This document shows positions 26,967 through 59,372 of a stretch of DNA of 64,000 nt, one piece after another; positions within the stretch are counted from its first letter, which is position 1; every line of letters begins with the position of its first letter. Made by a program: the position numbers and the translations under genes. Source of the DNA: a plasmid; sequence record NZ_CP025192.1; one strand, given 5' to 3'. The notes below the pieces were generated by a model. The model made no database searches, was not told the DNA's origin, and saw only the letters and a program-made list of their open reading frames with translations.

Positions 26967-28610
26967 GGGCTCTGACGCAATTTCGATGGCGGTCATCGGC
27001 CTGCTGCTATGACGCGGGCCTGGAGCAGGTCGAGATTCCCTCTGCCATACATCTGGCGTTTGACCACCTTCAGCTTGTTGATCTGCCCCTCGGCTTGGGC
27101 GTTGGACCAAGCGGAGGAAATTGCGGCTCGGACGGCGACATGATCCCGGGCGAGCCCGCGCGCGAACGGGGCCAGGAGGCTGGCTGCCGCCCTGTCGAGC
27201 CAGCCATCCAACGCGGCCTCATGTTTTCGGCGGATCAAGGCGTGAAAGGCTTCGACGATCTCCCGCGCCTGGACCAGGGTAGGCACCGCTGCTTCGATAG
27301 CAGCCACCGTCACAGTCTGCGTCTTGGACAGGCTGTCACGCGCCATGGTCATCAGGCGTGCCACGGTGCGGGCCGACGGAACACGGCTCAGCCCCTCGAC
27401 GTTGACCTGCTCTGACCGGCGGCGACGCGTCGCCCACTCTGCGACCACCCGCAGCGAGCCGTGGAAGCCGAGATCGCGAAGCTCGCGCCACAGCGCGGCG
27501 CCGTTGCGGACTCCAGCCGCCCAGCGCGCGTCCAGCCAGGGGAGGTGTGCGTCGAGCGAGCTTTCCCGCGTGCGGAACACATCCGCGCGCTGGCCGCGCA
27601 GGATGCGCCGCACCGTTCCGCGGCTATGACCGGTGCACCGGACGATCTCCTTGATCGCCTTGCCCGCCTTGTGCAGCGCCAAGACCGCGGCGTTGGCGTC
27701 CTCACGTCGGAGATAACCCTCGTACTGGAGCTTCTCCGCCGCGGTCAGCAGCCGGGGGTCGACCGTGGTGGCGCCGATAGCCGCGCGCACCTGGCGCATG
27801 CAGGCTCGGGTCGCGGCCAGAAAAGCCTGGCTGGCGTTCTCCATCAGGTGCCAACGATCGGCTACCTGCATCGCATCAGGTAGCGCCCGTGCCGCGGCCA
27901 GGGCGTAGGCGCCACCGCGGTCGCGGGTCACGATCTCGATCTGCGGCTGGCCGGACAACCAGGCCTGCGCCGTTGCGGGCTCGCGGTCGGGCAAGAGGGC
28001 GATAGTGCGTCGTCGCTCCAGGTCGCAGATCAGCGTGCCGTAACGGTGGTTGCGCTTCCACGCCCAATCATCGATCCCGACCGCCTGCGGTGGCGTGAAC
28101 GCTGGGCTTCCACGGCGCCGGACGACCCGCAGCAAGGTGTCGTTGCTGACCGGTAATCGCAGCCTCTGGGCGAAGCTCGCGGCCGGACGGCCGCCAAGCG
28201 CCAGGCCGAGGTGGTGGACGATCTCGTCCAGCCGGGCCGTGCGCCGAGCCCATGGCGTCGCAGCCACGAACCGTTCGGAGAAGATGCGGCGGGGGCACAG
28301 GGCACGGTCGCAGCGGAACCGCCGGACGAGGAGCTTCAATTCCACAGGACGCCCGCTCAACGGGAGATCGGCCAAGTTCCGAGTGTAGCGGCTGTGCACT
28401 CGATGGCTGACGCCACCACAGCCGGGACAGATCCCTGCTACCGTTGATGGTCGCACCGTCATCACCACCGCTGTGCCGGTCTCGTCCACGCTCTCCAGGA
28501 CGAATCCTGGCGGGATTAAAGCTGCTGGACTGAGGTTCCTCGCCATCCTGCTGATCCCTGACTGACCAGGGAACCCAGCACGTCAACTTCAGCAAAATTG
28601 AGTCAGAACC
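26967..28610 (-). mobile_element. ISL3-family element with roughly 8-bp TSD CCCTTTTG
   Basis: IRs GGCTCTGACGCAATTTCG (26967) and the inverted match CAAAATTGAGTCAGAACC (28593-28610). CCCTTTTG is present at both junctions. Inserted into the very end of the IS21 element. Confidence 0.8.
26993..28546 (-). CDS. ISL3-family transposase
   Basis: 517 aa. N-terminal zinc finger CPGCG...H and the C-terminal signature QAEGQINKLKVVKRQMYGRGNLDLLQARV. Confidence 0.9.
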   Translation of the reverse strand: MARNLSPAALIPPGFVLESVDETGTAVVMTVRPSTVAGICPGCGGVSHRVHSRYTRNLADLPLSGRPVELKLLVRRFRCDRALCPRRIFSERFVAATPWARRTARLDEIVHHLGLALGGRPAASFAQRLRLPVSNDTLLRVVRRRGSPAFTPPQAVGIDDWAWKRNHRYGTLICDLERRRTIALLPDREPATAQAWLSGQPQIEIVTRDRGGAYALAAARALPDAMQVADRWHLMENASQAFLAATRACMRQVRAAIGATTVDPRLLTAAEKLQYEGYLRREDANAAVLALHKAGKAIKEIVRCTGHSRGTVRRILRGQRADVFRTRESSLDAHLPWLDARWAAGVRNGAALWRELRDLGFHGSLRVVAEWATRRRRSEQVNVEGLSRVPSARTVARLMTMARDSLSKTQTVTVAAIEAAVPTLVQAREIVEAFHALIRRKHEAALDGWLDRAAASLLAPFARGLARDHVAVRAAISSAWSNAQAEGQINKLKVVKRQMYGRGNLDLLQARVIAAGR

Positions 28611-28938
28611 CCTTTTGCGCGCCGATCTGGGGTCCCAATTCAGTGCCGATTGACAGGTAGGGCGGCTCGTCGACCAGGAGGGCGTAGGCGCGTTGCAGAG
28701 CCTCCAGCTTCAGCGGATCGGTCTGCTCCGCGAAGCCCCGCAGCGTGCCCATCGCGATCTCCACCTCGCTCCGGCGCGGGGCCAGCGCCGCCTCGAACTC
28801 CGCTATCGAGGCGGCTTTCGCCGGCTCGACCGCGACCAGGAAGTCGAGGGCCGCCCGCACGTCGCGCTCGGTGATGAAGTGCGGGTGGTCGGGGCCGGCA
28901 TAGCGGATCACGGTGGGACGCGAGACGAAGGTCATGGC
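28603..28938 (-). CDS. small hypothetical protein, last gene of the dotL operon, with its 3' end running into the ISL3 terminal repeat
   Basis: MTFVSRPTVIRYAGPDHPHF...GAQKGF. The final codons and the stop are supplied by the ISL3 TSD and IR, so the native C-terminus is probably lost. Confidence 0.45.
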   Translation of the reverse strand, partial: AMTFVSRPTVIRYAGPDHPHFITERDVRAALDFLVAVEPAKAASIAEFEAALAPRRSEVEIAMGTLRGFAEQTDPLKLEALQRAYALLVDEPPYLSIGTELGPQIGAQKGF

Positions 28939-29867
28939 ATGGCCTCCTGGTGGGGCTTCGGGAGGGTGCGGGGGCGCCGCAGGCAGCGCTCCCCGGGGGG
29001 CGGCAGGCCGGGCATGTCGGCCCGCGCGTACCGGCCCCAGCCGATGCGGACCACCAGCCCCGCGACGCGCAGGGCACGCAGATGGCCGGTGACGTTCGAC
29101 ACCGAGCGGCCGACCTCGCCGGCGATGTCGCAGGCCTGCCGCGGGGTCTCCAGACAGGCCAGGATGGCGTCGCCCACGCGCCGCGGCCGCCGCCTCGGAT
29201 TCCCGCCCGACGGGGCCGGCAGGGAGACCAATCCCGTCCGTGAGGTTTCGGTCGCCACGTAGCGGCCGTGGCCGGTGCGGGCCAACTCGCCGCCGCGCAG
29301 CAGCGTCTGCGCCAGGTCGTTCACCCGCGACGTCGGCAGGTCCAGTGCCCAGGCCACGTCCTGGATGCGAAGTTCCTGCCCCGGTGCCGCCAGCAGGGCG
29401 CCACGCACCACCATCAGCTCCAGCGCACCGAGGCGGCTCGGCGTCAGGGGGCGCGTGCCGGCGCAGTGCCAGCGCAGCACCCGTTTCCGGTGACTTTCCG
29501 CGCTGCCGAGGCGGACCAGCGCCTGCAATTCGGTGGCAGCCGTGTCCATGGGCAGGCCGCTGCGCGCCGCGACATCGGCGAGGTCGATCAAGGCTCCACC
29601 CGCGAGCGCTGCCGCCACGCGCCGGCTCGGGGACCAATCCGGGGCAACCGGCCCATCCCGCAGGCCCGAGAGCGCATCGCGGGCGATCAGCAGGTCCTGG
29701 CAGTAGGGGCGCACCCGGCCGTCGCGGCAGAGCCGCAGCAGCCTCCGCGCCACCACGAGCGGCGCGGCGCCGCAGCGCCGGGCGAGATCCGCGACCCCTC
29801 GCGGCGTCGACAGCGCGGCCAGGAGGCGACCCGGCAGATCCTTTTCCATGGCCCGGGGTGCCGTCAT
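28932..29867 (-). CDS. protein built of four tandem winged-HTH-like repeats (putative DNA-binding)
   Basis: Four segments of about 60 aa share the pattern L..L....R.ADLA...G..........L..L...G.V.R...GRY. Translationally coupled to dotL upstream and to the small ORF downstream. Confidence 0.5.
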   Translation of the reverse strand: MTAPRAMEKDLPGRLLAALSTPRGVADLARRCGAAPLVVARRLLRLCRDGRVRPYCQDLLIARDALSGLRDGPVAPDWSPSRRVAAALAGGALIDLADVAARSGLPMDTAATELQALVRLGSAESHRKRVLRWHCAGTRPLTPSRLGALELMVVRGALLAAPGQELRIQDVAWALDLPTSRVNDLAQTLLRGGELARTGHGRYVATETSRTGLVSLPAPSGGNPRRRPRRVGDAILACLETPRQACDIAGEVGRSVSNVTGHLRALRVAGLVVRIGWGRYARADMPGLPPPGERCLRRPRTLPKPHQEAMP

Positions 29868-32179: not shown

Positions 32180-32725
32180 GGCGTGGCGCTCAGCGTTCCA
32201 GCCCGAAGCCGTCGCGCGCCGGCCGCGCGGGGCCAGGGGCCGCAGCCGCCGGTACGGTGGGCGGCCGGGGCGTGGCGGCCTGGGGCAATGGCGCCGTGCC
32301 CGGTGGCACGGAGGGTGGCAGCACGACCGGTCCCTGGCCGAGCTGCTGCCGCAGCTGCTGCATCGGCGACGGGCCGGGTACCGGCAGGTCGGCGCCGGGC
32401 TGCGGACCACGCGGTGGGGGCGGCTGGGAGAGCGACGCCCGGGCTCCGGCGTCGGCGCTCGCCAGCCGCTCCGCCCTGCCGCTTTCCGCGTTGCCGCCGA
32501 GGATCGCGCCGCCCGTGAAGGACAGGACCGTGCAGGCAACCAGGACGACCCAGTCGAAGCGGTTCCGCACGGCTCGCACGGTGGTCGCTTCCGACACCTT
32601 TCCGGCTGCCCTTTCGGAATCGCCGAGGTGGAAGTGGACATGCACGGGCCGGCCCGCGTCCTGCTGCGGGACCGACGCGACGGTCCGGCCCAGGAAGTCG
32701 GCGAGCGGGCTCTCGGGGTTGGGGT

Positions 32726-33907
32726 TCACGGCTGCGTCCTCGCTGTCTGCTCCTCGGCATGCTGGAGGAGCGCGATGCGAACGGCCCGCTCCGCCTCGTC
32801 GAGCTGCGGTGGGAACAGGGGACAGCGAGCCTGGCGCTCGGCCTGCCAGTGCGAGCGCGAACCGACCGCCTCGACCCGTGGATTGGGCTGGCTGTTCTGC
32901 CCGGGGCCGTGGCCGGGGAAGCCCAGCGAATGCAGGGCGTACCAGAGGGAGCGGTCGAGCAGCTTGAGGCCGTTGAACTGCGCCGGGGCGAGGATGCCGG
33001 ACTCCAGCCGCGCGGCGTTGAGCAGCCCCATCAGGGCGGTGGTCTCGTAGGCGTGGCGGGCAGCCGCCGCCTCGGCCGCCTCGTGCGCCGCTCCCTCGGC
33101 CAGCACGGCATCGGCCCGCAGCAGCACCGCCGGAGGGACCGGCAGGCTCTCCGCAGGGCCGGTGGGCGACGGATCACGGGCCTGCCCCAGCGCCTCGGCG
33201 AGATCGCCCAGCAGCTGCTGGCATTCCTCGCGCCGCCCGCTTAGGTGCAGCGCGAAGGCCGCGAAGATGACGCGCCCCGCCGGGGAGGCCCGGCGCGGGC
33301 CGCGCCAGACGGGGCCGAGCTGAAGGAGCAGCGCCTGCCGCAGCCTGGTCCCGTCCACCTCTCCCTTGGCATCGAGGCAGAAGCGGCCGGCCCATTCCTG
33401 GACGTGCAGGGCGGGATCGGCCGGCCGAGGCGCCTTGGGAGCCGGATCGACGAGCTTCAGGTGCCGGCCGAGCATGGCACTGGCCGCCCGGTAGAAGCGG
33501 GCCTGCTCGCGCAGCAGGCCGTCGAGGTCGAAGCGCCGCCGAAAGCGGCCCGGCGGCGCCCCGACGAAGCAGAGCACGGCCAGGGCGCCGATCAGCCCGG
33601 CCGCCGGCCACCGGAAGAAGCCGTTGACCTGCCCGCACATCGCCACCAGGCGCTCGAAGCTGACGGTCGCGTAGTTGCCGTGGATCACGCCCTGCCGCAG
33701 CGCCTCGTAGCCGTCGGTGAAACGGCCGATGAAGGTCATCTTGCGGATCTGCAGCCAGGCCACCGCCTCGACCACCTCGCGGTGGTAGCTCGACCACAGC
33801 ATCCAGCCGAGGAAGCCGCAGCCGATGACGATCACGATCAGGCTGAGGAAGACGTAGTCGTCGCTCGACGCCCAGCCGCGGCGGGCGCCACCTCCCGCCG
33901 TGCTCAT
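32726..33907 (-). CDS. dotM: DotM/IcmP-like inner-membrane protein (TrbA-like)
   Basis: 393 aa with N-terminal TM helices and a large cytoplasmic domain. Position immediately upstream of dotL matches the icmP-icmO order. Confidence 0.55.
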   Translation of the reverse strand: MSTAGGGARRGWASSDDYVFLSLIVIVIGCGFLGWMLWSSYHREVVEAVAWLQIRKMTFIGRFTDGYEALRQGVIHGNYATVSFERLVAMCGQVNGFFRWPAAGLIGALAVLCFVGAPPGRFRRRFDLDGLLREQARFYRAASAMLGRHLKLVDPAPKAPRPADPALHVQEWAGRFCLDAKGEVDGTRLRQALLLQLGPVWRGPRRASPAGRVIFAAFALHLSGRREECQQLLGDLAEALGQARDPSPTGPAESLPVPPAVLLRADAVLAEGAAHEAAEAAAARHAYETTALMGLLNAARLESGILAPAQFNGLKLLDRSLWYALHSLGFPGHGPGQNSQPNPRVEAVGSRSHWQAERQARCPLFPPQLDEAERAVRIALLQHAEEQTARTQP

Positions 33908-34360
33908 GCCGGGGCTCCGAAGAACACGATGTTGGCGTGGTGCCGTCTTGGCTCGATGCCTTGCCGCTCCGCCGGCTGGGTGCCGTCATAGCCTGGCAGC
34001 GCCGCGAGATAGAGGTTCAGCGGCCAGACGATGCCCTCGGGCATCGCCCGGGCATCGACCTCCATCACCTCGCCGCCGATCCGTCGCCGGAAGCGGCGCC
34101 GGGTGGCGAGGGCGGCGATCGAGGACAGCTCCATCGCGAAGCGCACCGCCGCGTTGTCGAGCGGCAGGCCGGTGTGGTCGCGCATCCAGACCAGCACCGG
34201 GGACAGCGCCCGGATCAGCCGGGCCGCCAGGCTGCGCCAGGGGCCGTGGCAAACCGCGCGGAAGCCCGTCATGCGGCGCAGCAACGCGAGGCTGACCGCC
34301 TCGGCGTCGCCGTCGCGCAGGGCATCGGGCGGGCGGTCGGGAAAGCAGGCGCTGGCCATG
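33904..34360 (-). CDS. paralogous fragment of the DotL middle domain (about 150 aa; stand-alone protein or pseudogene)
   Basis: LSPVLVWMRDHTGLPLDNAAVRFAMELSSIAALATRR...PLNLYLAALPGYDGTQP aligns at roughly 45 percent identity with residues about 395-515 of the dotL product in this window. Confidence 0.5.
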
Positions 34361-34399
34361 CGGGTCTCCGGTCTCATACGCGGAATCTGCCCTGGCTCC

Positions 34400-34415: not shown

Positions 34416-34928
34416 TCAGGGTGTGCCCCTGGACCCCGTGCCGCTGGTCCGGTCGCGCAGCCGCAGGACCTGGGTCAGCACCTGGCGCAGATAGCGGTCC
34501 TTGTAGACCTCGGTGCGGGAGTGGTAGCGGCCGACACCCTCCCAGAAGTCGCCGCCGGCGCTGTCGAGGGCCGTGCGAAGGATCCAGGCGCCCGCCTCGA
34601 CATTGGCGCAGAAATTGTTGAGCAACGCCTCGCGCGCGGCGGCGACGCTGGTCCCCCAGCGCCGGGCGATGGCCGGCAGGTGGATCTCGTTGATCTGCAT
34701 CGGGCCGATATCGACCGTGCCGTTGGTGTTGCCGCTGGTCCGGCCGATCGAGCCGCCCTCGACCGCGAGCAGCACCGCGATCACGCCCGGTGGCACCCGG
34801 TGCAGCGCCGCCGCGGCGCGGATGCACTCGGTCACCGCCGTCACCGTGGCGTCGGAGACGTCGTCTGCCCTGGCTTGCCCCACCAGGAGGTAGGGGAGGA
34901 TGGCGGCAGCCAGCAGGGTGGCTCTCAT
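34416..34928 (-). CDS. lytic transglycosylase (SLT domain), VirB1/TrbN-like
   Basis: Signal peptide. SLT motifs AVEGGSIGRTSGNTNGTVDIGPMQIN and AGAWIL. Confidence 0.8.
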   Translation of the reverse strand: MRATLLAAAILPYLLVGQARADDVSDATVTAVTECIRAAAALHRVPPGVIAVLLAVEGGSIGRTSGNTNGTVDIGPMQINEIHLPAIARRWGTSVAAAREALLNNFCANVEAGAWILRTALDSAGGDFWEGVGRYHSRTEVYKDRYLRQVLTQVLRLRDRTSGTGSRGTP

Positions 34929-35351
34929 GGGCTGGCTCCCGGGGCCGGGCGCCGGGGTGGGGAGGCCTCCGCGCGCAGCGTGCGCCAGACCTCGGCGAAG
35001 TCGTTGACGACCAGCGCGGTCGGGCCGCCGGTCCGGTGGATCGCCTCCAGCGCCGAGAGGGCGACCACCGTGAAGGGCTCGCCCCGCACCCCTGCCACCC
35101 GGTAGCCCAGCAGCGCGGCGGGATCGCGGTGCTGCTCGACGCCCAGCCCGCGCCCGGTGGCCGCCTGCCAGACGGCGCCGGCGGCGGCGAGGATGCTGGG
35201 CATCACCCCGTCCGGTGCGCCGGCCAGATCGGCGGGCAGGCGGTGCAGCCGGCCGGAACCCTCGTCGCGCAGCAGCAGGGGCCGGCCATCGCGCTCGACC
35301 ATCGCCTGCAGGGCGCGGCCGAGCCGGTCGAGATCCAGGGGCGGGCTCATG
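34925..35351 (-). CDS. hypothetical cytoplasmic protein (142 aa) in the icmS position after icmT
   Basis: Start at MSPPLDLDRLG. Sits between icmT and the SLT gene. Family not recognised. Confidence 0.45.
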
Positions 35352-35597
35352 CCAGCCTCCGGCGGCGCCAGGCGGGGACGGCGGGCCGCAGCCGGCCGAC
35401 CAGCCAGCGGCGCAGCACCCGCAGCAGCGCCGGCACCGTCAGCCCGAAGAAGCTGATCGTGCCGAAGAACACGGTGCCGGCGAGGGCGACGTAGAGGGTG
35501 GCCCAGCTCCAGTAGACCACGAAGCACAGCACCGGCAGGCAGGCGCGGGCGTCGAGCATGAGGATGCGCACGGGCAGGGCGGTGTTGCGCCACATCA
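35347..35597 (-). CDS. icmT: IcmT/TraK-family small membrane protein
   Basis: 83 aa. MWRNTALPVRILMLDARACLPVLCF fits the IcmT N-terminal WRDSARxxRFFxLDAR pattern, followed by TM helices. Directly downstream of dotB, as in dotDCB-icmT and traHIJK. Confidence 0.65.
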
Positions 35598-38216: not shown

Positions 38217-38256
38217 GCGGGACCTCCGTTCCTATGCGTGAAGCATGGAGCGGAGC

Positions 38257-38267
38257 GATGCGAACGG
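38257..38267 (-). promoter_or_regulatory. recurring motif GATGCGAACGG, 41-51 bp upstream of dotD
   Basis: Same motif. A second inverted copy lies at 38341-38350 and a partial one at 38295-38303 in the same intergenic region. Confidence 0.45.
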
Positions 38268-38373
38268 GAGGCCTCCCTTTGCAGCTGCGGGCTCGTTCGC
38301 CGACCTGTCAGGCTGACGAGGACGGGGCTACGAATCCTGTGTTCGCATCGAACACGGCCCCTATGCGACGCGA

Positions 38374-50046: not shown

Positions 50047-50505
50047 GTGCCCGACCTGGAGCGAGATGGCGTCTTGGAATGGGTCCGGCGCGCCGAGCCC
50101 GCCGTGGCGGCGATGGTGGCGGGACTGATCCGGTCCGTGGAGGACGATCCGGCCGTGCTGCCGCTGCTGACCGCATTTGGCCAGCATCTCGATAAGGATG
50201 CCGGCGGCGGCGGCAGCCTCGCCGGCCTTTTCACCGACGAGGGCCTGCATCTCCGGGAGGCCATGGCCCAGCTCGGCGTCGCACGGCTGCTGCGGCTGCT
50301 CGCCTGGTTCGACGAGGCGCCCGTGGGCCGCTTTCATCCCTGGCCCGAGGCCCTGCTGCGCGACGAAACCACCGAAGCCGGCGCCTGCCTTCGGGCCATG
50401 CTGGCGGCGCTGCACCGCCAGACCCTGCTGGAACGCCTGTTCGCCCCAGCGCGGCTGCAGCTGCTGGCCGAGGTCCTGGGCGAAGCCCGCCGGGAGGCCG
50501 CGTGA
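50047..50505 (+). CDS. hypothetical cytoplasmic protein (152 aa, GTG start), similar in size to IcmW
   Basis: Acidic, helical, 152 aa. No motif recognised, so the IcmW assignment is size and position only. Confidence 0.35.
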   Translation: MPDLERDGVLEWVRRAEPAVAAMVAGLIRSVEDDPAVLPLLTAFGQHLDKDAGGGGSLAGLFTDEGLHLREAMAQLGVARLLRLLAWFDEAPVGRFHPWPEALLRDETTEAGACLRAMLAALHRQTLLERLFAPARLQLLAEVLGEARREAA

Positions 50506-51026
50506 TGCGTCGCACCTGCCTCGCCCTGGCGCTGCTCGCGACCCTGCTCGCCGCGCCCTCCCTCGCCCGGGCGCAATCGACCGGCAGCGTGGGCTGTACC
50601 GCGATCACCCAGGCCGCCGCCGGAGCCATCGAGGCGCGGGTCCAGGCCGACGACACGGCCATCCAGGCGCCCACCAGCGTCCGCAACCTGACCTGCCTCG
50701 ACGGCTTCTTTCGCGGCGTCGGCCTCAACGTGATCGCCAGCCTGCTCGATCCTACCAACCTGCTCGACGCCATCCAGGGTCAGATCTGCGCCACGGTCAG
50801 CCAGGCCTGGCAGTCGGCGCTCGGCTCCATCCAGTGCGGCCTCACCGTCAGCGGCTTCAACCTGGGCTTCGGCGGGATCGGCGGTGGCCTGATGTGCCCG
50901 CGTCTGTCCTTCGGCGGCGGCGGTCCGCCCATCGGTACCTTCGGAACGGGCTTCGGGACGTCGGGCAACTTCTACGTCAACGGCTCACCCCTGGCGCCCT
51001 CCGGCTACACCCTGCCAAGCCGCTAG
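50502..51026 (+). CDS. secreted Cys-containing Gly-rich protein
   Basis: Signal peptide MMRRTCLALALLATLLAAPSLARAQS. Six Cys. C-terminal Gly-rich repeats GFGGIGGG/GGGGPPIGTFGTGFGTSG. Confidence 0.5.
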   Translation: MMRRTCLALALLATLLAAPSLARAQSTGSVGCTAITQAAAGAIEARVQADDTAIQAPTSVRNLTCLDGFFRGVGLNVIASLLDPTNLLDAIQGQICATVSQAWQSALGSIQCGLTVSGFNLGFGGIGGGLMCPRLSFGGGGPPIGTFGTGFGTSGNFYVNGSPLAPSGYTLPSR

Positions 51027-51044: not shown

Positions 51045-52244
51045 ATGCGGAAACATCTCAGGACCACTGTCGCCATCCTGGTCGTGGCCGGCACCGTGAC
51101 AACGGTTGCCCCCCGCCCGGCCCATGCGGAATGGCCGACCTTCGATGCCGTCACCCACCTCCTGCTGACGCAGGCGCAGCAGGTCCTCAACAATGCGATC
51201 ACCCGTGTCTATGACAACATCACCAGTATCGGGAACCTGATCGGCGACCGCATCACCAACATGGGGGGGCTGCTGGACACCAAGCTGGGCGATGGCTTCA
51301 CCCAGGTCTCCAACTATCAGCGCGCGCAGATCAGCGCGGTCCAGCAGATCGCCGACGCCTCCAACACCGCCAATGCACGCTTCCAGCGCGACATGCGGAA
51401 CACCGAGATCCGCGACGAGCACACTGCCTCGCCGCAGGCCTGCCTTGCTCTCGACAGCGGCCAGGCGGCCACGGTGTCGCGCATCCAGGGCGACCGGATC
51501 GCGACCGCCATCGCTGACGTCATGGACTTGCGGGGCGAAGGCGGTCAGGGCACCGCCGCCTGGTACGGGCAGGCGCAGTCCATGACGTCGAGCAACGCGC
51601 TGCATCTCGCCCGCTACTGCGACCAGGACGAAGAGGCGGCTGGCCTCTGCACCATCTCCGTTCGCCCCAATGCCGACGTGCGAGCCTCGTCCTTCAACGG
51701 CCGCGAGGTCTACGCCGACGTCGACGAGGTGAACGCCGCGAACGACTACGCCACCAACGTCGTGCAGCCGGTCGTGCCGGCGGCGCTGCGCGGCGACCAC
51801 CTCACCTCCGTTGAGGGTCAGAACGCCTCGGCCCTTCGCCGGGCCTACGACGCCCGCATGTCCCTGGCGCGCTCTGTGTTCAGCACGCAGATCGCCATGA
51901 CGGCGCCGGCGGTGACGCTGAACGAGGCCCAGCGCGCCCAGATCACGGCGCGCGGCGGCACGCCGCCCGCGGCCGGTTCCTGGATGCAGGTGCTCTCCCT
52001 GGAAGTGGACCGTCGCTTCTCGGATACGGCCTGGGCGGCGTCTTTGCAGGCGATGACGCCGGCGGCCGTCTCGCGTGAGATCGCGGCGCAGCTCGCGCTC
52101 TCCAACTACCTCGCGCTGCAGAACCTGCGCGTGCAGCAGCAGGTGGCGGCCGTCGGCGCGGCGAACCTCGCGATCGCCGCCGAGCGGGGCTTTCCCGGCG
52201 TCGGCGCGACCCCGATCCCCTCCCCGTCCTTCGTCGCCAACTGA
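51045..52244 (+). CDS. secreted protein (399 aa)
   Basis: Signal peptide ending AHA-EW. Helical Ala/Gln-rich. Possibly the IcmX-like periplasmic component, judged from position only. Confidence 0.5.
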   Translation: MRKHLRTTVAILVVAGTVTTVAPRPAHAEWPTFDAVTHLLLTQAQQVLNNAITRVYDNITSIGNLIGDRITNMGGLLDTKLGDGFTQVSNYQRAQISAVQQIADASNTANARFQRDMRNTEIRDEHTASPQACLALDSGQAATVSRIQGDRIATAIADVMDLRGEGGQGTAAWYGQAQSMTSSNALHLARYCDQDEEAAGLCTISVRPNADVRASSFNGREVYADVDEVNAANDYATNVVQPVVPAALRGDHLTSVEGQNASALRRAYDARMSLARSVFSTQIAMTAPAVTLNEAQRAQITARGGTPPAAGSWMQVLSLEVDRRFSDTAWAASLQAMTPAAVSREIAAQLALSNYLALQNLRVQQQVAAVGAANLAIAAERGFPGVGATPIPSPSFVAN

Positions 52245-52255: not shown

Positions 52256-53692
52256 ATGTCCACCACCCTATCCGACGCGCCACGCCCAGCGGCGCGTGGT
52301 CCCGATCCGCTCCGTGAGCTGTTCGACCGGATGAACGAGGTGCGTGCCACCCTCTCCGGGCACGATCCCAGGCTGAGCCGCCAGATCGAGGAGGTCACCC
52401 GGCTGCTGCACCAGCCCGATGTCGTCCGCGACGAGGCGCTGCGGACCCGCGCTGCCTACGCACATCAGGATTTCTCCCGCCTGGCCGGTCCGGTCGGCGG
52501 CGTGCCGGAGGGTCTGCGTGCCGAACTCGGCCGCCTTGCCAACTCGGCGCCGGGGCTGGAAAACGAGCGTATCCGCGACCTGCTGCGCGAAGTGCCGGAC
52601 CTGCGGGATCGGCGCCTCGCCCATGATATCCGCACCCTCGCCGTCGTCACGGGCAAGGAGGGTGGCGACCAGTACCGCCCCGACGTCATGGATAAGGTGG
52701 AGGCGCTGGAGCGGCGGGTGATGACGCTCTCGCCGACCTTCGGGAGTGCTGCCGCCCGGCACGCGCAGCCTGACCTGGCCGCCGGCGGGCCGCAGGCGAC
52801 CGCAACCCCAGCCGCCGCGGCGTCCACGGCGCGGACGCCCCAGCCCGAGGAGAAGCCGACCGTGCCGGCTTCGCCGTTGGTGCAGTCCAGCGTCTCCCCA
52901 GGCGAAGGCGCGCGCGCACCGCGACAGCCCGAGACCGGCCAGCAGGCTACCCAGCAGCCTACCCCGGCCCCGGCCGCCATTCGTGCGGCCGAGGGGCAGG
53001 CCCAGCCGGCTCAGCCCGCGCTGGGTGCCCGCGATGCAGGTCCGGTCGAGCGGCTGGTGGCTTCGATGGTGCCCCCTCGTCCCGCCAGCCCGCCTCCCTG
53101 GGAGCCGCAGCCGACCCCGATCACCGAGCGGATCGGGAGCTACCTGGCCAACCGTGCCGACAGCAAGGCACTGGAGACCGCCGAGGCGTCCGGGCAGCGC
53201 GCCGTGGATGCTCTGCGGGGCTTCGCCCAGGGGGCCGGCGCGGCGGTGATGGCTCGGATCAATGAGGCCGCCCGCTCCGATCCCCGCAGCATGGAGGGGG
53301 TGCTGGCCGAGATGCGCGAAGGTGGACGGCATGCCGAGCTGCGCACGCAGTTCAACAACGCCCTCGTCCAGGAGAAGGGTCTGGCCGCCGCTTACGATGC
53401 CGCCGCCTCGGCCGTGAAGCAGTACGGGACCGATCGCCAGGCCGCCGAGGCGGTGATCCTCAAGCGATCCGAGCCGGCGGCCCTGGCCGGGCGCTTCGAG
53501 CGGCTCGACGCCGCCATCGGCGAGGCCGCGTCCCACCTGCCCAGCCGCCAGGAGGGGAAGAGCGTGGTGGACGAACTCGGCCAGAAGGTCGCCGAGCTGG
53601 TGCGGCGAGCGGCCGACGCGGTTCGCAACGTCTTCCAGCAGGACCATCGCCAGGGCGTCTCGGCCGCCTCATCCCCGTCTCCCAGCCCATAG
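52256..53692 (+). CDS. hypothetical protein (478 aa) with a Pro/Ala/Gln-rich central linker
   Basis: Protein-like N- and C-terminal domains separated by a low-complexity linker. Immediately upstream of dotA. Confidence 0.45.
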   Translation: MSTTLSDAPRPAARGPDPLRELFDRMNEVRATLSGHDPRLSRQIEEVTRLLHQPDVVRDEALRTRAAYAHQDFSRLAGPVGGVPEGLRAELGRLANSAPGLENERIRDLLREVPDLRDRRLAHDIRTLAVVTGKEGGDQYRPDVMDKVEALERRVMTLSPTFGSAAARHAQPDLAAGGPQATATPAAAASTARTPQPEEKPTVPASPLVQSSVSPGEGARAPRQPETGQQATQQPTPAPAAIRAAEGQAQPAQPALGARDAGPVERLVASMVPPRPASPPPWEPQPTPITERIGSYLANRADSKALETAEASGQRAVDALRGFAQGAGAAVMARINEAARSDPRSMEGVLAEMREGGRHAELRTQFNNALVQEKGLAAAYDAAASAVKQYGTDRQAAEAVILKRSEPAALAGRFERLDAAIGEAASHLPSRQEGKSVVDELGQKVAELVRRAADAVRNVFQQDHRQGVSAASSPSPSP

Positions 53693-53749: not shown

Positions 53750-56071
53750 ATGCGACGCCCAACCCTGTTTCTGGCCCTGGCCACCCTGGCGCCGGTCCTG
53801 CTCCTCGCGGGGCCGGCGCTCGCCCAGGGGACGGGCGTGAACCTCAGCTGGTCCGCCCTTGATCCCGGTGACGACTGGGCTGCCATAGTCATCCGCTCCG
53901 TCTTCCCGATCAATGGCTCGGCCGGAACCGTCAGCACCGGCAACGCCGCCACGGTGATCGGCACCCTGGTCCGCTCCCTCACCGGCTTCGTGGCGGCCAT
54001 CGCCATGTTCTACCTCGTCTATTCCATGGTGATGCAGATCTGGCGCGGTGCCGAGACCTCGCGCCTGCTCACCGACGGCATGAGCGGCATGATGGCCCTC
54101 CGTCTCGGGGTGGCGGCGATCTTCATGTTCCCGCTGGCCAACGGCTTCTCCGCCGGGCAGGCCGCCGTGGTGCAGGCCTCGATGTGGGGCATCGGCATGG
54201 CCAAGACCGTCTACACCTCGGCCGTCACGGCGATCGGCGCCGATGCGCGCGTCATCGCCGATCCGATTGTCCCGGGCAGCCGCACCATCGTCGCCGGGCT
54301 GATCCGCAACGAGTTCTGCCGCGCACTCGTCAACGCCGCCGCCAACAACCCCAACCTGGTGCCGGCGCCGGGCGCCATCGCCTCAAGCGGGGTCGGCAGC
54401 GTGCCGGCCTTCGAGACCTGGGCCTACCGCCTGTCCAGTGGCAACGAGAGCGGCGCCCCGGCCTGCGGCACCGTCACCCTGGCCCAGCCGGCCAGCACCA
54501 ACACCGTCGCCGGTGTCGATGTCGGCATGGTCGACCAGCAGCGCCGGATCCTGAACAGCGTCGTCACGGGCAGCATCCGGCCGCAGGTCGAGAGCGCCGC
54601 GCAGGCCTTCTACGCCACCCGCCAGGCGTCGGCGCTGCAGCCACTGCTGGGCGTGCTGACCAGCGCCACCAGCCAGTACAACAGCCAGCTCACGGCGGCA
54701 GCCAGCGGTGCCATGAGCCGCATCCGCGGCTCCCTGCAGGATGCCCGCGGCAGCGGCGCCACCCCGGACGCCACCGCGATCCGCCTGAGCGCGCTCGGAT
54801 GGTCGGCCGCCGGTGCCTACTATCTCGAATTCTCCCGCCTCAACGGCGCCACCCTCTCGCTGATGAGCGGCGTACCGCGCGTCGAGCGTCCCTCCTATCT
54901 GGGCCTCGGCCCGGCCCTCACCGCCGATGTGGCGCCGCTTTCCGCTGCCGCCGAGGCGTTCATGGAGCGGGTCAGCGCCTACGTCGCCACCACCGACCAA
55001 GCCAACACGCCCTTCGGCGGCTCGGGCCTGTTCTCCGGCGCCTCGCCGGCCGAGGACGGCGCCGGCATGATGGAGCGGGTGTTCCGCTCCCTGGGCCTGA
55101 GCGAGCGGATCCTCGGCCTCGTCACCAACTACTTCGTCACCCCTGGTACCTTGGTCTGGATCGACCCGTTCGGCAGCCTGATGCAACTCGGCCACGCCAT
55201 GGTCGCGGCCGGTATGGGGGCGCTGGGGCTGGCGGGGATCGGGGTGGGCGGGTCCAATGCCGTCGGCACCGCCCTGGGCGGCGTGCCGCTGGTGGGTGGG
55301 GTGCTGGCGGCCAGCTTCAGCGGATTGGGCAAGGCGTTGGAATTCCTCGGCCCGGCGATCTTCGCGCTGATCTCCGGCCTGCTCCTCCCCGGCCTGACCA
55401 TCGCCTTCGTGCTGCCGCTCATCCCCTTTCTGATCTGGGTCGCCGGCGTCGCCGGCTGGCTGATCCTGGTCTGCGAGGCGGTGATCGCGGTGCCGCTGTG
55501 GATGCTGGCGCACATGACCATGCGCGGCGAGGGCCTGCACGGCCGGGCCACCGAGGGATACTCGCTGCTGTTCAACGTGCTGTTCCGCCCGGTGCTGATG
55601 CTGCTCGGGCTGTTCCTCGGCTACTTCATCTTCGCCAGCATGTCCTGGCTGCTGCGGCTGAGCTTCGGGGTGGCGGCAGGCTTCGTGCTGGGCAACGGCT
55701 GGATCGTAACCAACGTGCTCGGGGTCGTGGTGCTGCTCTGCGTCTTCGTGCTGGCCCACGTCGTCCTGGCGCTGCTGTCCTTCCGCATGATCTCCCTGGT
55801 GCCCCACCACGTCCCGCGCCTGATCGGCTTCCTGCCGGCGAACCGGGTCGACATGGACGGCTTCAGCCGGGATGCTGCGCTGGTTGGGGCGGCAGGGGCA
55901 TTGCAAAACATCGACGGTGCCGCTCGAAGGCTTGGTGGTTCGGCTCGCAATTCTGGTGATCGAACCCTGGCGCCGACGGCAATAGCTGGACCGCAAGGGC
56001 GGGCAGCAAGTAAGGAGATGGACTCTACCCTCCGGGCATCGACAGAGATCTCCGGCGCTAGGGATGAATGA
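53750..56071 (+). CDS. dotA: DotA-like polytopic membrane protein (TraY-like)
   Basis: Signal peptide, two early TM helices, a large periplasmic domain (about residues 150-520), then 6-8 C-terminal TM helices. This is DotA architecture. Confidence 0.65.
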   Translation: MRRPTLFLALATLAPVLLLAGPALAQGTGVNLSWSALDPGDDWAAIVIRSVFPINGSAGTVSTGNAATVIGTLVRSLTGFVAAIAMFYLVYSMVMQIWRGAETSRLLTDGMSGMMALRLGVAAIFMFPLANGFSAGQAAVVQASMWGIGMAKTVYTSAVTAIGADARVIADPIVPGSRTIVAGLIRNEFCRALVNAAANNPNLVPAPGAIASSGVGSVPAFETWAYRLSSGNESGAPACGTVTLAQPASTNTVAGVDVGMVDQQRRILNSVVTGSIRPQVESAAQAFYATRQASALQPLLGVLTSATSQYNSQLTAAASGAMSRIRGSLQDARGSGATPDATAIRLSALGWSAAGAYYLEFSRLNGATLSLMSGVPRVERPSYLGLGPALTADVAPLSAAAEAFMERVSAYVATTDQANTPFGGSGLFSGASPAEDGAGMMERVFRSLGLSERILGLVTNYFVTPGTLVWIDPFGSLMQLGHAMVAAGMGALGLAGIGVGGSNAVGTALGGVPLVGGVLAASFSGLGKALEFLGPAIFALISGLLLPGLTIAFVLPLIPFLIWVAGVAGWLILVCEAVIAVPLWMLAHMTMRGEGLHGRATEGYSLLFNVLFRPVLMLLGLFLGYFIFASMSWLLRLSFGVAAGFVLGNGWIVTNVLGVVVLLCVFVLAHVVLALLSFRMISLVPHHVPRLIGFLPANRVDMDGFSRDAALVGAAGALQNIDGAARRLGGSARNSGDRTLAPTAIAGPQGRAASKEMDSTLRASTEISGARDE

Positions 56072-56074
56072 CCG

Positions 56075-56524
56075 ATGAACGATGACGGCGAGAGCCAAGG
56101 AATGAGCGGAACGGCCGGCTACCTGCTAGGCAGGATGTCGGCAGAAAACGCTCGTTCGCGTTCGGATTGGGTCGATAATCTTGTGGCCCGTCGGCGGCGC
56201 CCGGAAGCGCGTTTCTTCCGTGAAGCTGATGTACATGCGAAGATCGCTGAATGGCAGGCTGCGCTCGCCTCAAGGGACGCCATCATCGATCAGCTACAGG
56301 AGCATGCTGCTGGTCTCGCCAGCGAGCGGGATCAGTGGCGTGACTACGCGAAGGCGATCGAGGGCGAGCGGGAGGAACTGAAGGAGCAGTTCCGCAGCCT
56401 GACCGTGAACGCCAACCTCATGGTCGAGCGCCTCGACGAGTACGACAGGGCGAACGAGGCGCTGGAGGCGGAAGTCGAGGCGCTGCGCGCCGAGATCGCC
56501 CGCCTCAAGGGCAGTGGCGGGTAG
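56075..56524 (+). CDS. coiled-coil protein (149 aa)
   Basis: Heptad-rich EALEAEVEALRAEIARLKG. Translationally coupled to dotA. Confidence 0.45.
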   Translation: MNDDGESQGMSGTAGYLLGRMSAENARSRSDWVDNLVARRRRPEARFFREADVHAKIAEWQAALASRDAIIDQLQEHAAGLASERDQWRDYAKAIEGEREELKEQFRSLTVNANLMVERLDEYDRANEALEAEVEALRAEIARLKGSGG

Positions 56525-56530
56525 CGCAGG

Positions 56531-56542
56531 CCGTTCGCAACG
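56531..56542 (+). promoter_or_regulatory. recurring motif CCGTTCGCAACG, 39 bp upstream of the lipoprotein gene
   Basis: Same motif and orientation. Confidence 0.4.
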
Positions 56543-56580
56543 ATACTGGGCAGCATGGGGCCGCAACCAGGACAGGCCCC

Positions 56581-56898
56581 ATGCCCTACGCTCGAAACCT
56601 CCTCCTCGCCGCTCTCGCGTCGATCCCACTCGCGGCCTGCAGCAGCGGCAACATCCGCACCGCCGGCAGCTACAGTGCTCCGGCCGCGCCGCAGGTCCAG
56701 AATCCCAACTACGATCCCTATGCCGCTCCGGGCACCGTCAATGCCACCTGGGCGCCGCCCGTGCTCAACCGTAACGGCACCATCGTGAAGCCCAACGATC
56801 CGCGCGGGGCGATGGCCGGCAGGCCGGACTACGAGCATGCCCCGTGGGCCACGGGCGCGGCCGGCGGTGCCACCTACGCCCCACCCGGCACCTTCTGA
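56581..56898 (+). CDS. small lipoprotein
   Basis: Lipobox LAAC after a signal peptide. 105 aa. The recurring upstream motif lies at 56531-56542. Confidence 0.5.
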   Translation: MPYARNLLLAALASIPLAACSSGNIRTAGSYSAPAAPQVQNPNYDPYAAPGTVNATWAPPVLNRNGTIVKPNDPRGAMAGRPDYEHAPWATGAAGGATYAPPGTF

Positions 56899-56921
56899 CG
56901 ACCTGGCGGCCGGTGCGGCGG

Positions 56922-57305
56922 CTATCGGGCCGGCCGCACATCCGTGCGGCTGAAATCGTCGCCGACGTAGAGCAGCGGCGCGTCGTGCTCGATCGCCAGC
57001 ACGTAGGCGAAGCAGTCGCCGAAGTTCAGCCCCGCCGGGTGGACGCCCTTGCCCCAGCGCGCATAGGCCTCGGCCATGCGCCGCGCCGTCCCCGGTGTGA
57101 CGCTCGCGACCTCGAAGCCCAGGCCCTCGACCAGCTGGCGCATCTCCACCCCGAGATCGCGCCGGCCCGCCACGATCAGCGCCTCCGCCATGGTCCCGGC
57201 CGAGATCGCCAGGGCGTCGGCCGCCTCCAGCACATCCATGCAGGCCTCGGCCTCGGGCTCGTCGAGCAGGATCGCCAGCAGCGCCGAGGTGTCGACCGCG
57301 ATCAT
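56922..57305 (-). CDS. vapC: VapC toxin (PIN domain)
   Basis: MIAVDTSALLAILLDEP with the conserved D-T-S opening, plus GDCFAY near the C-terminus. Confidence 0.8.
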   Translation of the reverse strand: MIAVDTSALLAILLDEPEAEACMDVLEAADALAISAGTMAEALIVAGRRDLGVEMRQLVEGLGFEVASVTPGTARRMAEAYARWGKGVHPAGLNFGDCFAYVLAIEHDAPLLYVGDDFSRTDVRPAR

Positions 57306-57559
57306 CGCGGCAGCCCGGCCTCGTCGTACAGATCGTCCTGACTGCGGGCGGCGCTCACGCCGGCCCGTGCCTTGGCGGCACCGACGCGGCGCAGCTCCTC
57401 CATCAGGGCGCGGCGTCCGGCTGCATCCGGTGTCCGGTGCACCGGGACCAGGCGCACGGCGGCGCGGCCATGACGCGTCAGCACGACCTCGTCGCCGGCC
57501 TCGGCCCGGCGCACCAGCTCGGTCAGCTGCCCCTTCGCATCCGTCACGGAGACCTGCAC
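57302..57559 (-). CDS. vapB: Phd/YefM-family antitoxin
   Basis: MQVSVTDAKGQLTELVRRAEAGDEVVLTRHGRAAVRLVP is the canonical Phd/YefM fold sequence. ATGA overlap with vapC. Confidence 0.75.
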   Translation of the reverse strand: MQVSVTDAKGQLTELVRRAEAGDEVVLTRHGRAAVRLVPVHRTPDAAGRRALMEELRRVGAAKARAGVSAARSQDDLYDEAGLPR

Positions 57560-57644
57560 GATCGAACCCCAGCAGAAAGCCTCCCGGCGAAATAGACCAT
57601 CGGGTGGTCCATTTCAACGATGCTGGCGCTGAGTGGTATCGGGG

Positions 57645-58199
57645 TCAGCCGGCGCTCGGCCAGAATCGGTCGGCCGATCGGAGGTACTCCCCGGCCGAGC
57701 CCAGCCGCCGCGTGCGCAGCTGCCAGTTCGCCCAGGCATTGCGGAAGGCGAGCACGAAGAACGCGGCGCAGAAGGGCAGGAACTGCACCGCCGCCCAGAA
57801 GCGTCCCTGGCCTGCGGGAAGCACCGTCATCTGCCAGGTCCATAGCCCCAGCGCGGCCCAGCCGGCCGCGAAGCAGCCCCAGGCCACCCGCGCCGTCTGC
57901 CGGCGCCGCCGCAGCCAGCGCCGCTTCAGCTCGAACTCGGTGAGGCCCATCGCGAAGGCCGTCGCCCCCGGGTCGAGGCGGCCGTCCTCGTCGGCGATCG
58001 GGCCACGCACCGGGGCCGGCTCGCGCCGGATCGCGGCGACGAGGCCCCGGACCAGCCCGTAGCCGGACCGGATCTCGGCCACTCCGGTCGTCTCGGCGGC
58101 CCTGCGAGCCGCCCAGCGGGGGCCGGCGAGTAGCCATCCGAAGCGCCGACGACTACCAGGGTGGTCGCCCTGCAGCCCGGGTCCCAGGTCGATGGCCAT
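57645..58199 (-). CDS. hypothetical membrane protein (184 aa)
   Basis: Two C-terminal TM helices (AWGCFAAGWAALGLWTW, AAVQFLPFCAAFFVLAF). Confidence 0.4.
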   Translation of the reverse strand: MAIDLGPGLQGDHPGSRRRFGWLLAGPRWAARRAAETTGVAEIRSGYGLVRGLVAAIRREPAPVRGPIADEDGRLDPGATAFAMGLTEFELKRRWLRRRRQTARVAWGCFAAGWAALGLWTWQMTVLPAGQGRFWAAVQFLPFCAAFFVLAFRNAWANWQLRTRRLGSAGEYLRSADRFWPSAG

Positions 58200-58202
58200 G
58201 GC

Positions 58203-59372
58203 TCAGCCCCCGGTTGCGGTCGCGACCAGCGCCTCGAGGTTGTTGGGCAGTCCATCCGTCCGCCCCTCCGTGCCATCGGCCCGGCGCCAGACCAGCGTCG
58301 GCGTCCCGCGCAGGCCGATCGAGGCCGCTGCGGCCCCATTCTCCCGCAACCGCGCGGCCGCTTCCGGCGCCGGCGGGGCCCGCAGGTCGCCCCGGCTCCA
58401 GGCGGCGATCATCGCTTCCTCCGAGCGGCTCAGCATCGCGAGCGCGTCGGCGGTGCTCCGCCCGGCATTGTGGTGATCGAGGATGGCCACGGGGATCACC
58501 GACAGGTGCAGCCGGCCGGCCGCGACCAGCGGCTGCAGGCGCCGCAGGGCCTGGACCGAGTAGCCGCACTGCGGATCCACGAACATCCAGACATGCGGCG
58601 CCCCCTCGGGGCCCGCAGTGCCGGCATGGGCTCGCTGGGCCACCGCGACCGGGCTGGCGGCCGGCGCGACTGCCCCGCCGCCGGCACCTTGAGCCGGCCC
58701 GCCGGCCGGCTGCGTCGCACCGGGCGCGACGTCCCCGATGGTGACGGTCGGGATCGCCCCTTCGATGCCCGCCACATGATCGCGGGTGAGGTTCTTGCCC
58801 GCCGTGTCCCACATCACCCCGGGAATGACGCGCTCCCCGTCGGGGGTCGCGTAGAATACCTGGAAGGCGTCGCCGCTGCGCAGCACCACGCTGCGAAGGC
58901 CCTCGCGCTCACCGAGATCCGTGACGCCCGCGCCCCCGATCTCACGGAGACGCGCCAGGGTCAGGTCCACCGGAAAGCCCGCCACCATGGCCCGTCCGGA
59001 AGGCAGCACCGAGAGCAGCATGAACTCGGCGCCGGAGCGGGCCACGACCAGGCGCAGGCCATGGCTCAGCCCCAGGTCCTGCAAGGTGGCACCGGCCTGG
59101 GACACGCGCTGCAGCACCGGCACCGAGAGATCTCCGCCGGGCGTCGCCACCGTGGCAGGAGCTGCTGACGGCGCAGCCGCCGGCGCCGCGGCACGCTGGA
59201 CCGCGGGCGTGGGCGCGGTTGGCCAGGCCTGGGGCGCGGCGGATACCGGAGCCGGGAGGGCCAGGGTGGGAGGCGCATCGGGCCCGGCAGAGGCGGGGCA
59301 GAGGGTCTGCGCCATGGAGATGGCCGGCAGGCCAACCAGGGCGCAGGTGGTCAGGAGGATGCGTCGCATGGG
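58203..59372 (-). CDS. periplasmic thiol:disulfide interchange protein, DsbC/TrbB-like
   Basis: Signal peptide MRRILLTTCALVGLPAISMA. Thioredoxin active site DPQCGYS. R64 TrbB of I-type T4SS is a DsbC-like isomerase. Confidence 0.75.
   Translation of the reverse strand, partial: PMRRILLTTCALVGLPAISMAQTLCPASAGPDAPPTLALPAPVSAAPQAWPTAPTPAVQRAAAPAAAPSAAPATVATPGGDLSVPVLQRVSQAGATLQDLGLSHGLRLVVARSGAEFMLLSVLPSGRAMVAGFPVDLTLARLREIGGAGVTDLGEREGLRSVVLRSGDAFQVFYATPDGERVIPGVMWDTAGKNLTRDHVAGIEGAIPTVTIGDVAPGATQPAGGPAQGAGGGAVAPAASPVAVAQRAHAGTAGPEGAPHVWMFVDPQCGYSVQALRRLQPLVAAGRLHLSVIPVAILDHHNAGRSTADALAMLSRSEEAMIAAWSRGDLRAPPAPEAAARLRENGAAAASIGLRGTPTLVWRRADGTEGRTDGLPNNLEALVATATGG

Follow-up and report, generated by a model that had tools for sequence, protein, structure and literature searches.

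A plasmid-borne type IVB (MPF_I) gene cluster of Roseomonas mucosa with predicted IcmS and IcmW adaptors belongs to a family linked to MobF relaxases

In the type IVB Dot/Icm system of Legionella, the coupling complex comprises eight parts, DotL-DotM-DotN-IcmS-IcmW-LvgA-DotY-DotZ (10.1101/2024.06.14.598817; PMC3441705), and the gain of IcmS and IcmW has been placed in the last ancestor common to Legionellales (PMC8896642). Among type IVB systems outside Legionellales, the kib system of Pseudomonas putida IsoF has been noted to include icmW (PMC9519443; 10.1101/2024.06.14.598817). No counterparts of IcmS and IcmW are found in the transfer region of IncI1 plasmids (R64/ColIb-P9 type, represented here by plasmid pB64). 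Here we analyze a cluster of about 32 genes (positions 28932-59369) within a 64,000-nucleotide stretch of the plasmid sequence NZ_CP025192.1 (hereinafter, the window), which encodes counterparts of five of these eight parts, namely DotL, DotM, DotN and, as predicted from profiles and a structural model, IcmS and IcmW. The cluster is probably the module for mating-pair formation (MPF) and coupling in a conjugative type IVB (MPF_I) system, from a family whose intact members are paired with MobF/TrwC relaxases.

The presence of an IcmS homologue is supported by both a profile and a structure prediction. The single sequence yields only E 0.8 in a phmmer search, and neither an 8-sequence profile nor a Pfam search with family members gives a match; a 71-sequence profile matches four Legionella IcmS entries of PDB (E 1.2e-6, the next match being at 0.3). 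The AlphaFold2 model of this protein (predicted local distance difference test score, pLDDT, 95.9) was compared with PDB using Foldseek, and the top five matches, which are the only significant ones, all come from IcmS-IcmW-DotL entries, with a probability of 1.00, target-normalised TM-scores of 0.74-0.82 and root mean square deviations of 2.3-2.8 Å (next match, E 0.54). We take the matched chains of these entries to be the IcmS chains. The family includes at least 136 clusters at 50% identity in a search of 1.84 billion representative proteins and, in 36 of the 36 plasmids that hold a member, the respective gene is unannotated or labeled "hypothetical protein".

The predicted IcmW homologue is supported by profiles. 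A 15-sequence profile (positions 1-145 of 152) aligns with Legionella IcmW (5xnb_C, positions 1-148 of 151) with E 4.7e-5, and the residues PDL follow the start codon in both proteins. A single-sequence search of PDB gave no match and the AlphaFold2 model is poor (pLDDT 51). A 98%-identical protein is already labeled IcmW by NCBI, and homologues are also encoded in Lichenicola and Methylosinus plasmids. Both adaptors are thus represented by homologues, in disagreement with the initial annotation of the window, made from the sequence alone, which saw no clear IcmS or IcmW. In Methylosinus sp. C49 plasmid pMSC49b (L006), we also observe an open frame on the plus strand (35412-35957) that matches the IcmW profile with E 4.4e-20; the Prokaryotic Genome Annotation Pipeline (PGAP) calls no plus-strand gene there, and a 131-aa open reading frame (ORF) is called on the opposite strand (35529-35924).

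Among the other coupling-complex parts, DotL, which is a type IV coupling protein (T4CP), aligns over residues 11-672 with Legionella DotL (6sz9_A; E 1.6e-111), leaving a C-terminal tail of about 100 aa past the aligned region. DotM and DotN are identified by profiles and by their Legionella counterparts (Table 1). No family match to LvgA, DotY or DotZ was obtained among the cluster proteins in Pfam and NCBIfam searches, which divergent homologues could escape.

The components of the cluster were identified using Pfam and NCBIfam profiles and pairwise scores to IncI1 proteins and to Legionella proteins from PDB. The scores of DotC, DotD, DotH, DotI, IcmT and DotA (TraI, TraH, TraN, TraM, TraK and TraY, respectively) are all above the curated cut-offs, as are those of DotM, DotB, DotG, DotL and the lytic transglycosylase. 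The VirB4-class ATPase DotO is assigned through its match to IncI1 TraU because Pfam, NCBIfam and single-sequence PDB searches gave none; in a tblastn search with DotO (3778 plasmids), 95% of the protein aligns with IncI1 traU, with an identity of 27.6% (1e-86). Given that the DotO ATPase, the signature envelope parts, DotB and the DotL/DotM pair are all present, the cluster is a type IVB/MPF_I system, that is, a machine of a known kind, and the view of it as a rare Dot/Icm system within DNA of high GC content gives way to an ordinary one. Profiles firmly confirm dotC, dotD and dotM, which the initial annotation had proposed with low confidence, and its assignments of dotL, dotB, icmT, dotO/icmB, icmJ, icmE, icmK, icmL and dotA stand on profile or pairwise tests, as do those of the DsbC-like protein and the lytic transglycosylase. 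The icmC and icmD assignments lack such support: four orthologue sets gave no significant match to NCBIfam profiles, and only position and membrane-spanning topology agree, so that the identity of these two candidates is not confirmed. For icmG the outcome is intermediate, with weak but recurring matches to NF038218, both of the window protein (E 0.009) and of its orthologue in the R. mucosa AD1 plasmid (L003; E 0.07, at the same end of the model), which point to a probable DotF/IcmG analogue.

Compared with Legionella Dot/Icm, the window shares homologues of DotL, DotM, DotN, IcmS, IcmW, DotB, DotO, DotC, DotD, DotH, DotG, DotI, IcmT and DotA. The gene orders icmL-K-E-G-C-D-J-B, dotD-C-B-icmT and dotM-dotL had been read correctly from the sequence, and the local orders icmL-K-E-(G-C-D)-J-B and dotD-C-B are the same in Legionella; presumably, the order icmT-icmS...icmP-icmO fits the Legionella arrangement as well. 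The window family differs in being plasmid-borne in Alphaproteobacteria and linked to MobF in relatives, and the window further contains a paralogue of a DotL segment, a winged-helix protein and an embedded toxin-antitoxin pair. None of the cluster proteins matches DotU, IcmF, IcmQ, IcmR, IcmV or DotK in Pfam or NCBIfam.

With IncI1, the window shares the organization of a plasmid MPF_I conjugative machine, one-to-one matches to TrbC, TrbA, TraJ, TraI, TraH, TraU, TraT, TraO, TraN, TraM, TraK, TraY and TraW, and a DsbC/DsbG-like protein as the functional counterpart of TrbB. In addition, nikB adjoins trbC in IncI1 in the same way as the relaxase gene of the relatives of the window system lies just past the T4CP gene. 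However, the relaxase of these relatives is MobF/TrwC whereas IncI1 encodes the MOBP relaxase NikB together with NikA; the window contains neither NikA/NikB nor thin-pilus (pil) genes, a shufflon or an IncI replicon, and carries a RepA_C replication gene instead; IcmS and IcmW homologues are present only in the window; and the identity is low, 26-28% for the best-conserved proteins. Pairwise bit scores against Legionella are about 2-8 fold higher than those against IncI1 (DotL 377/150, DotB 258/120, DotM 74/9, DotN 37/12), and, over 589 ungapped columns, DotL shares 35% identity with its Legionella counterpart and 26% with IncI1 TrbC. Because of these scores and identities, which are pairwise comparisons and not a rooted tree, the window system appears to be nearer to Dot/Icm than the IncI system is.

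This affinity, together with the IcmS and IcmW homologues, invites an alternative under which the cluster would be an effector-translocating type IVB system that injects proteins into eukaryotic cells, like the Legionella Dot/Icm system, or into rival bacteria, like the P. putida kib system, with IcmS and IcmW as effector chaperones and DNA transfer secondary or absent. The lack of a relaxase in the window and the association of R. mucosa with humans fit such a role, and so does the kib killing system of P. putida IsoF, a type IVB system from outside Legionellales in which icmW is annotated (PMC9519443; 10.1101/2024.06.14.598817). The latter system, which is likened here by description only, resides in a chromosomal genomic island and includes an effector-immunity pair, and the word "relaxase" is absent from the text of the respective paper (PMC9519443). 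In the cluster analyzed here, no toxin-immunity or effector-like gene was recognized, and the cluster proteins show no family match to DotU, IcmF, IcmQ, IcmR or LvgA. Moreover, the same gene set, including the IcmS-like gene, is linked to MobF/TrwC across many free-living genera, and the missing relaxase is better explained by an insertion-sequence junction (see below). Accordingly, we consider effector translocation to be an improbable primary function of the cluster.

The reading as a conjugative MPF and coupling module draws mainly on the relatives of the window system. A DotL alignment scan of 185,579 species-level genomes identified 156 confirmed relatives, and 52 PLSDB plasmids carry the same system; with 156 relatives, the system is therefore not rare, although it had been called uncommon. 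Among the 80 relatives that are listed, almost all are Alphaproteobacteria, and the genera include Roseomonas, Plastoroseomonas, Acidisphaera, Acidisoma, Acidocella, Komagataeibacter, Novacetimonas, Gluconacetobacter, Acetobacter, Gluconobacter, Methylosinus, Methylocapsa, Rhodoblastus, Roseiarcus and Aliidongia, along with a Terriglobus plasmid. The neighborhoods of 47 related loci with full 10-kb flanks were compared: IcmS-like, IcmT and DotM are all present in 44 of these, and MobF is encoded within 10 kb downstream in 30. In the R. mucosa AD1 plasmid (NZ_CP025190.1), the T4CP gene is followed by the winged-helix gene and then by a convergent MobF gene with a small upstream ORF. MobF is also found near the T4CP in p2-HV1, in a Lichenicola cladoniae plasmid and in pMSC49b. 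Distant IcmS-like proteins in two further assemblies occur in loci of the form DotD-DotC-DotB-IcmT-[IcmS-like]-...-T4CP-TrwC, one of which also encodes a shufflon-type pilus protein. Komagataeibacter medellinensis plasmid pGXY010 is typed in PLSDB as conjugative, MOBF and MPF_I.

Because MobF lies beside the T4CP in relatives and pGXY010 is typed in this way, the family is best read as conjugative, and the same observations speak against the earlier statement that function could not be decided from the sequence. The MOBF/MPF_I plasmids of Acetobacteraceae, Beijerinckiaceae and Methylocystaceae show the same gene set and order as the window, with an IcmS-like gene after icmT and, where examined, an IcmW-like gene; the window belongs to this plasmid family of acetic-acid bacteria and methanotrophs but lacks the MobF module and contains the Roseomonas-specific DotL-segment paralogue. 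As to whether the cluster belongs to a well-described plasmid family, which the initial annotation had raised against its own interpretation, the family is indeed large and machine-annotated, but our literature search found no paper describing it. Several points weigh against conjugation as the function. Of the 47 full-flank loci, 17 lack MobF within 10 kb; the MOB-suite typing of the 52 matching plasmids gives 37 as non-mobilizable; protein substrates are also conceivable, given that IcmS and IcmW are otherwise known as adaptors of effectors; conjugation by members of the family is predicted from gene content; and the absence of a relaxase pertains to these 64 kb of the replicon.

One of the plasmids that MOB-suite calls non-mobilizable is the Lichenicola plasmid, which holds both a complete type IVB set and mobF. 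The divergent MOBF/MPF_I family seems to escape typing based on BLAST.

In the window itself, there is no MobF homologue or remnant of the relaxase region, no relaxase domain was detected in the flanking ORFs scanned, and the initial annotation was right that the window contains neither a relaxase nor nikAB-like genes. Near position 28999, where the winged-helix gene ends, the similarity to the intact AD1 locus is lost, and the window contains no homologue of the sequence found upstream of mobF in the relatives. Exactly where the relatives hold the relaxase module, nested insertion sequences occupy positions 23392-28546, with an ISL3 transposase gene next to an IS21 element, in which an IS3 element lies between istA and istB, and RepA lies beyond. 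Unlike the relatives, in which the relaxase is encoded on the same element as expected of a self-transmissible one, the window holds the transfer apparatus without it. Either the DNA-processing module of this copy has been lost, or the copy relies on such a module located elsewhere. With the relaxase and origin-of-transfer (oriT) module missing, self-transfer is therefore not expected unless it is enabled in trans by a relaxase encoded elsewhere on the replicon or by a sister plasmid; strains of R. mucosa contain several such plasmids, and MobF is encoded on some of these.

The dense nest of insertion sequences at this junction, combined with the absence of a relaxase from the 64 kb, could also mean that the cluster is a stranded, non-functional remnant, which lost the relaxase and oriT through an insertion-sequence rearrangement and is retained only because the loss is recent. 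Truncated copies are seen in other R. mucosa plasmids: in NZ_CP025191.1, the cluster is broken off past the transglycosylase gene by an IS6 element, CP099475.1 retains only fragments, and many matching plasmids are typed as non-mobilizable. However, the roughly 32 ORFs of the present cluster are all intact and nearly identical to the copies in other strains, the sister plasmids with MobF could act in trans, and the relaxase absence covers 64 kb of the replicon. A dead remnant is accordingly an unlikely description of the cluster, and we continue with the conjugative module.

Based on the literature on the Legionella and IncI systems (PMC9302130; PMC5802825; PMC3441705), a conjugative machine of this type could be assembled as follows. 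DotC, DotD and DotH would form the outer-membrane core, DotG and the DotF-like protein would span the periplasm, and DotI, IcmT, DotA and small membrane proteins would make up the inner-membrane part. The energy would be supplied by DotO and DotB, the lytic transglycosylase would open the cell wall, and the DsbC-like isomerase might aid the folding of periplasmic parts. The coupling complex of DotL, DotM and DotN with the IcmS and IcmW homologues would receive the substrates, with the adaptors presumably bound to the DotL tail. Intact relatives are predicted to transfer plasmid DNA with the MobF relaxase attached, and this relaxase or other co-transferred proteins are most likely recruited by the IcmS and IcmW homologues.

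In pGXY010 (L093), the region between the T4CP gene and mobF (17027-21323) encodes a DUF1173 protein and a member of the Fic family, of 514 aa. Some other type IV systems secrete Fic proteins as substrates, and the Fic protein of pGXY010 may be a potential client of IcmS-IcmW.

The IcmS homologue in plasmid systems bears on the origin of the effector-recruitment platform of Legionella. As a tentative proposal, which we rate at somewhat less than even, IcmS-IcmW with DotM and DotN could be an ancestral part of a large MobF-linked conjugative type IVB clade, in which they recruit the relaxase or co-transferred proteins to the DotL tail, and Legionellales would have inherited this module and repurposed it for effectors. 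If so, the adaptors derive from a conjugative ancestor, contrary to the placement of their gain in Legionellales (PMC8896642). A MobF-linked conjugative clade with both adaptors is a modest addition to the known systems, and the family provides a conjugation setting in which to study how IcmS, IcmW, DotM and DotN contribute to the recruitment of substrates. Furthermore, because most of the matching plasmids are labeled non-mobilizable by MOB-suite, the potential for plasmid transfer is probably underestimated in acetic-acid bacteria and in Roseomonas, which is both a skin commensal and an opportunist.

The replicon is a Roseomonas mucosa plasmid, as indicated by the RepA gene and by megablast matches, with 97-100% identity of the window DNA to many deposited R. 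mucosa plasmids, in agreement with the initial description of a plasmid-borne I-type system. The window, with an average GC content of about 68%, is already deposited and largely machine-annotated by PGAP; for example, p2-HV1 (NZ_CP034926.1, L001) is 99.8% identical across positions 39001-63816. Real reading frames were chosen by the GC content of the third codon position, and PGAP gene calls of L001 and L002 were carried over, with start, stop and frame verified for each gene. The type IVB gene set is present where it had been located, every ORF is intact, and the cluster ORFs are 97-99.8% identical to the copies in other strains. The first ORF reported originally (28603-30327) is a high-GC artefact overlapping dotL that we rejected; the real genes in its place are those of the winged-helix protein and of DotL. 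A GcrA-like regulator, also reported initially, was not found among the ORFs scanned.

Table 1. Replication gene, insertion sequences and genes of the type IVB cluster in the window
Feature	Coordinates	Strand	Evidence or comment
RepA (RepA_C type) replication gene	21951-22934		Domain match
IS21 element, interrupted, istA	23392-24687		IS3 between istA and istB
IS3 element	24684-25912		Separates istA and istB
IS21 element, interrupted, istB	26213-26941		
ISL3 transposase	26993-28546		
Winged-helix protein, 311 aa, basic (isoelectric point, pI, 11.3), three or four winged-helix units	28932..29867	(-)	Pfam HTH_IclR, HTH_5, HTH_24
DotL/IcmO, T4CP, 771 aa	29864..32179	(-)	Pfam TrwB_AAD_bind and TraG-D_C; Legionella DotL 6sz9_A 377 bits; IncI1 TrbC 150 bits
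179-aa proline-rich protein, one membrane-spanning segment, between dotM and dotL	32190..32729	(-)	No family match (Pfam, NCBIfam)
DotM/IcmP	32726..33907	(-)	Pfam DotM_C 1.2e-43; Legionella DotM 73.7 bits; IncI1 TrbA 8.9 bits
DotL-segment paralogue, about 150 aa, flanked by dotM and the transglycosylase gene	33904..34365	(-)	Start codon uncertain
Periplasmic lytic transglycosylase	34416..34928	(-)	Pfam SLT 5.1e-6
Predicted IcmS homologue, 141 aa, directly after icmT	34925..35350	(-)	Profile and structure model
IcmT/TraK	35347..35595	(-)	NCBIfam NF038220 5.5e-33
DotB ATPase	35595..36779	(-)	Pfam T2SSE 1.7e-25; Legionella DotB 6geb 257.8 bits; IncI1 TraJ 120 bits
DotC/TraI outer-membrane lipoprotein	36776..37741	(-)	Pfam PF16932 (T4SS_TraI/DotC) 2.8e-79
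DotD/TraH lipoprotein	37734..38216	(-)	Pfam DotD 1.4e-22
DotO/IcmB/TraU ATPase, VirB4 class	38374..41439	(-)	IncI1 TraU 311 bits (phmmer)
DotN/IcmJ	41436..42095	(-)	NF038221 2.3e-10, below model cut-off; Legionella DotN 5x42 2.6e-8, 37.2 bits
Candidate in icmD/traR position, two membrane-spanning segments	42112..42546	(-)	Weak TraR match, E 0.022
Candidate in icmC/traQ position, four membrane-spanning segments	42648..43175	(-)	Position and topology
Probable DotF/IcmG analogue, single membrane-spanning segment	43187..44407	(-)	NF038218 E 0.009
DotG/IcmE, VirB10-like	44665..45975	(-)	Pfam TrbI 5.3e-11; IncI1 TraO 2.2e-8
DotH/IcmK	45975..46949	(-)	Pfam PF12293 4.1e-74
DotI/IcmL/TraM	46970..47599	(-)	Pfam PF11393 1.5e-50
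367-aa protein with a single membrane-spanning segment, encoded first in the long minus-strand operon	47664..48767	(-)	No profile match; conserved in L003, L005, L006
XRE-type helix-turn-helix regulator, between the divergent operons	48950..49444	(-)	Pfam HTH_3 1.6e-11
143-aa protein, first gene of the plus-strand operon	49543..49974	(+)	No profile match; conserved in relatives
Predicted IcmW homologue, 152 aa, pI 5.1	50047..50505	(+)	Pfam IcmW PF23130 40.1 bits, cut-off 27
Glycine-rich 173-aa protein, hydrophobic signal-peptide-like N-terminus	50505..51026	(+)	Weak TraL match
TraW-like protein, signal-peptide-like hydrophobic N-terminus	51045..52244	(+)	NF033888 conj_TraW 1.1e-10, nearly whole length, below model cut-off
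478-aa protein	52256..53692	(+)	No profile match; conserved in L003, L005, L006
DotA/TraY	53750..56071	(+)	TIGR04346 5.5e-118
Two small genes: 149-aa acidic protein; 105-aa protein with lipoprotein-like N-terminus	56075..56898	(+)	149-aa protein matches coiled-coil families only
VapC/Phd toxin-antitoxin pair inside the cluster	56922..57559	(-)	PGAP annotation of 99.8%-identical L001
184-aa membrane protein, possibly TraX-like	57645..58199	(-)	NF033887 E 0.0043
DsbC/DsbG-like thiol:disulfide isomerase	58203..59369	(-)	NF008657 DsbG 3.8e-24, below model cut-off

The start of the winged-helix gene overlaps the stop codon of dotL; the same gene is called by PGAP in L002, its orthologue lies between the T4CP and MobF genes in the AD1 plasmid, and it is present in 7 of the 47 related loci. 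This protein is possibly a relaxosome or regulatory accessory. The DotL-segment paralogue is a free-standing copy of DotL residues 195-345 (BLASTP, 41% identity, E 3e-34), which we take to be the all-alpha domain from the architecture of coupling proteins. It is found only in loci of the Roseomonas lineage and might act on substrate binding, as a decoy or a modulator, or else be a fixed partial duplication. The TraW-like protein is likely periplasmic, and the DsbC/DsbG-like protein also gives weak matches to the Pfam families DsbC_N, DSBA and Thioredoxin_2; although below the model cut-offs, the E-values of these two proteins in NCBIfam are convincing. Comparison of small orthologue alignments of the uncharacterized proteins with IncI1 TraL, TraP, TraQ, TraR, TraV and TraX using hhalign gave no significant match; the best probabilities were 15.7% for the 173-aa protein with TraL and 9.5% for the 184-aa protein with TraX, so that the TraX-like identity of the latter is not confirmed.

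In p2-HV1 (L001 20994-21654), a PIN/Phd pair is located between dotD and icmB, a position at which the window has no such pair (38217-38373); the VapC/Phd pair of the window (56922-57559) is a different one. Toxin-antitoxin modules seem to move into and out of these operons.

Outside the cluster, positions 1-13300 of the window, which precede it, are a metal-resistance region that encodes a multicopper oxidase (1436-3367) and, according to the annotation of 100%-identical plasmids, Ni/Co efflux and chromate efflux (chrA) proteins and a fused major facilitator superfamily/spermidine synthase protein. A low-GC (51-59%) stretch on the minus strand (17475-20591) encodes a HEPN (RiboL-PSP / MAE_28990) nuclease, a GmrSD_N/DUF262 protein and an N6/N4 DNA methylase, and this three-gene island looks like a horizontally acquired defence module within the plasmid. 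On the other side, genes for a FIST-N/FIST-C sensor-domain protein and a 342-aa protein adjoin the cluster (61315-63620, plus strand). The same pair adjoins the cluster in the diverged AD1 plasmid and may be a linked sensory or regulatory module.

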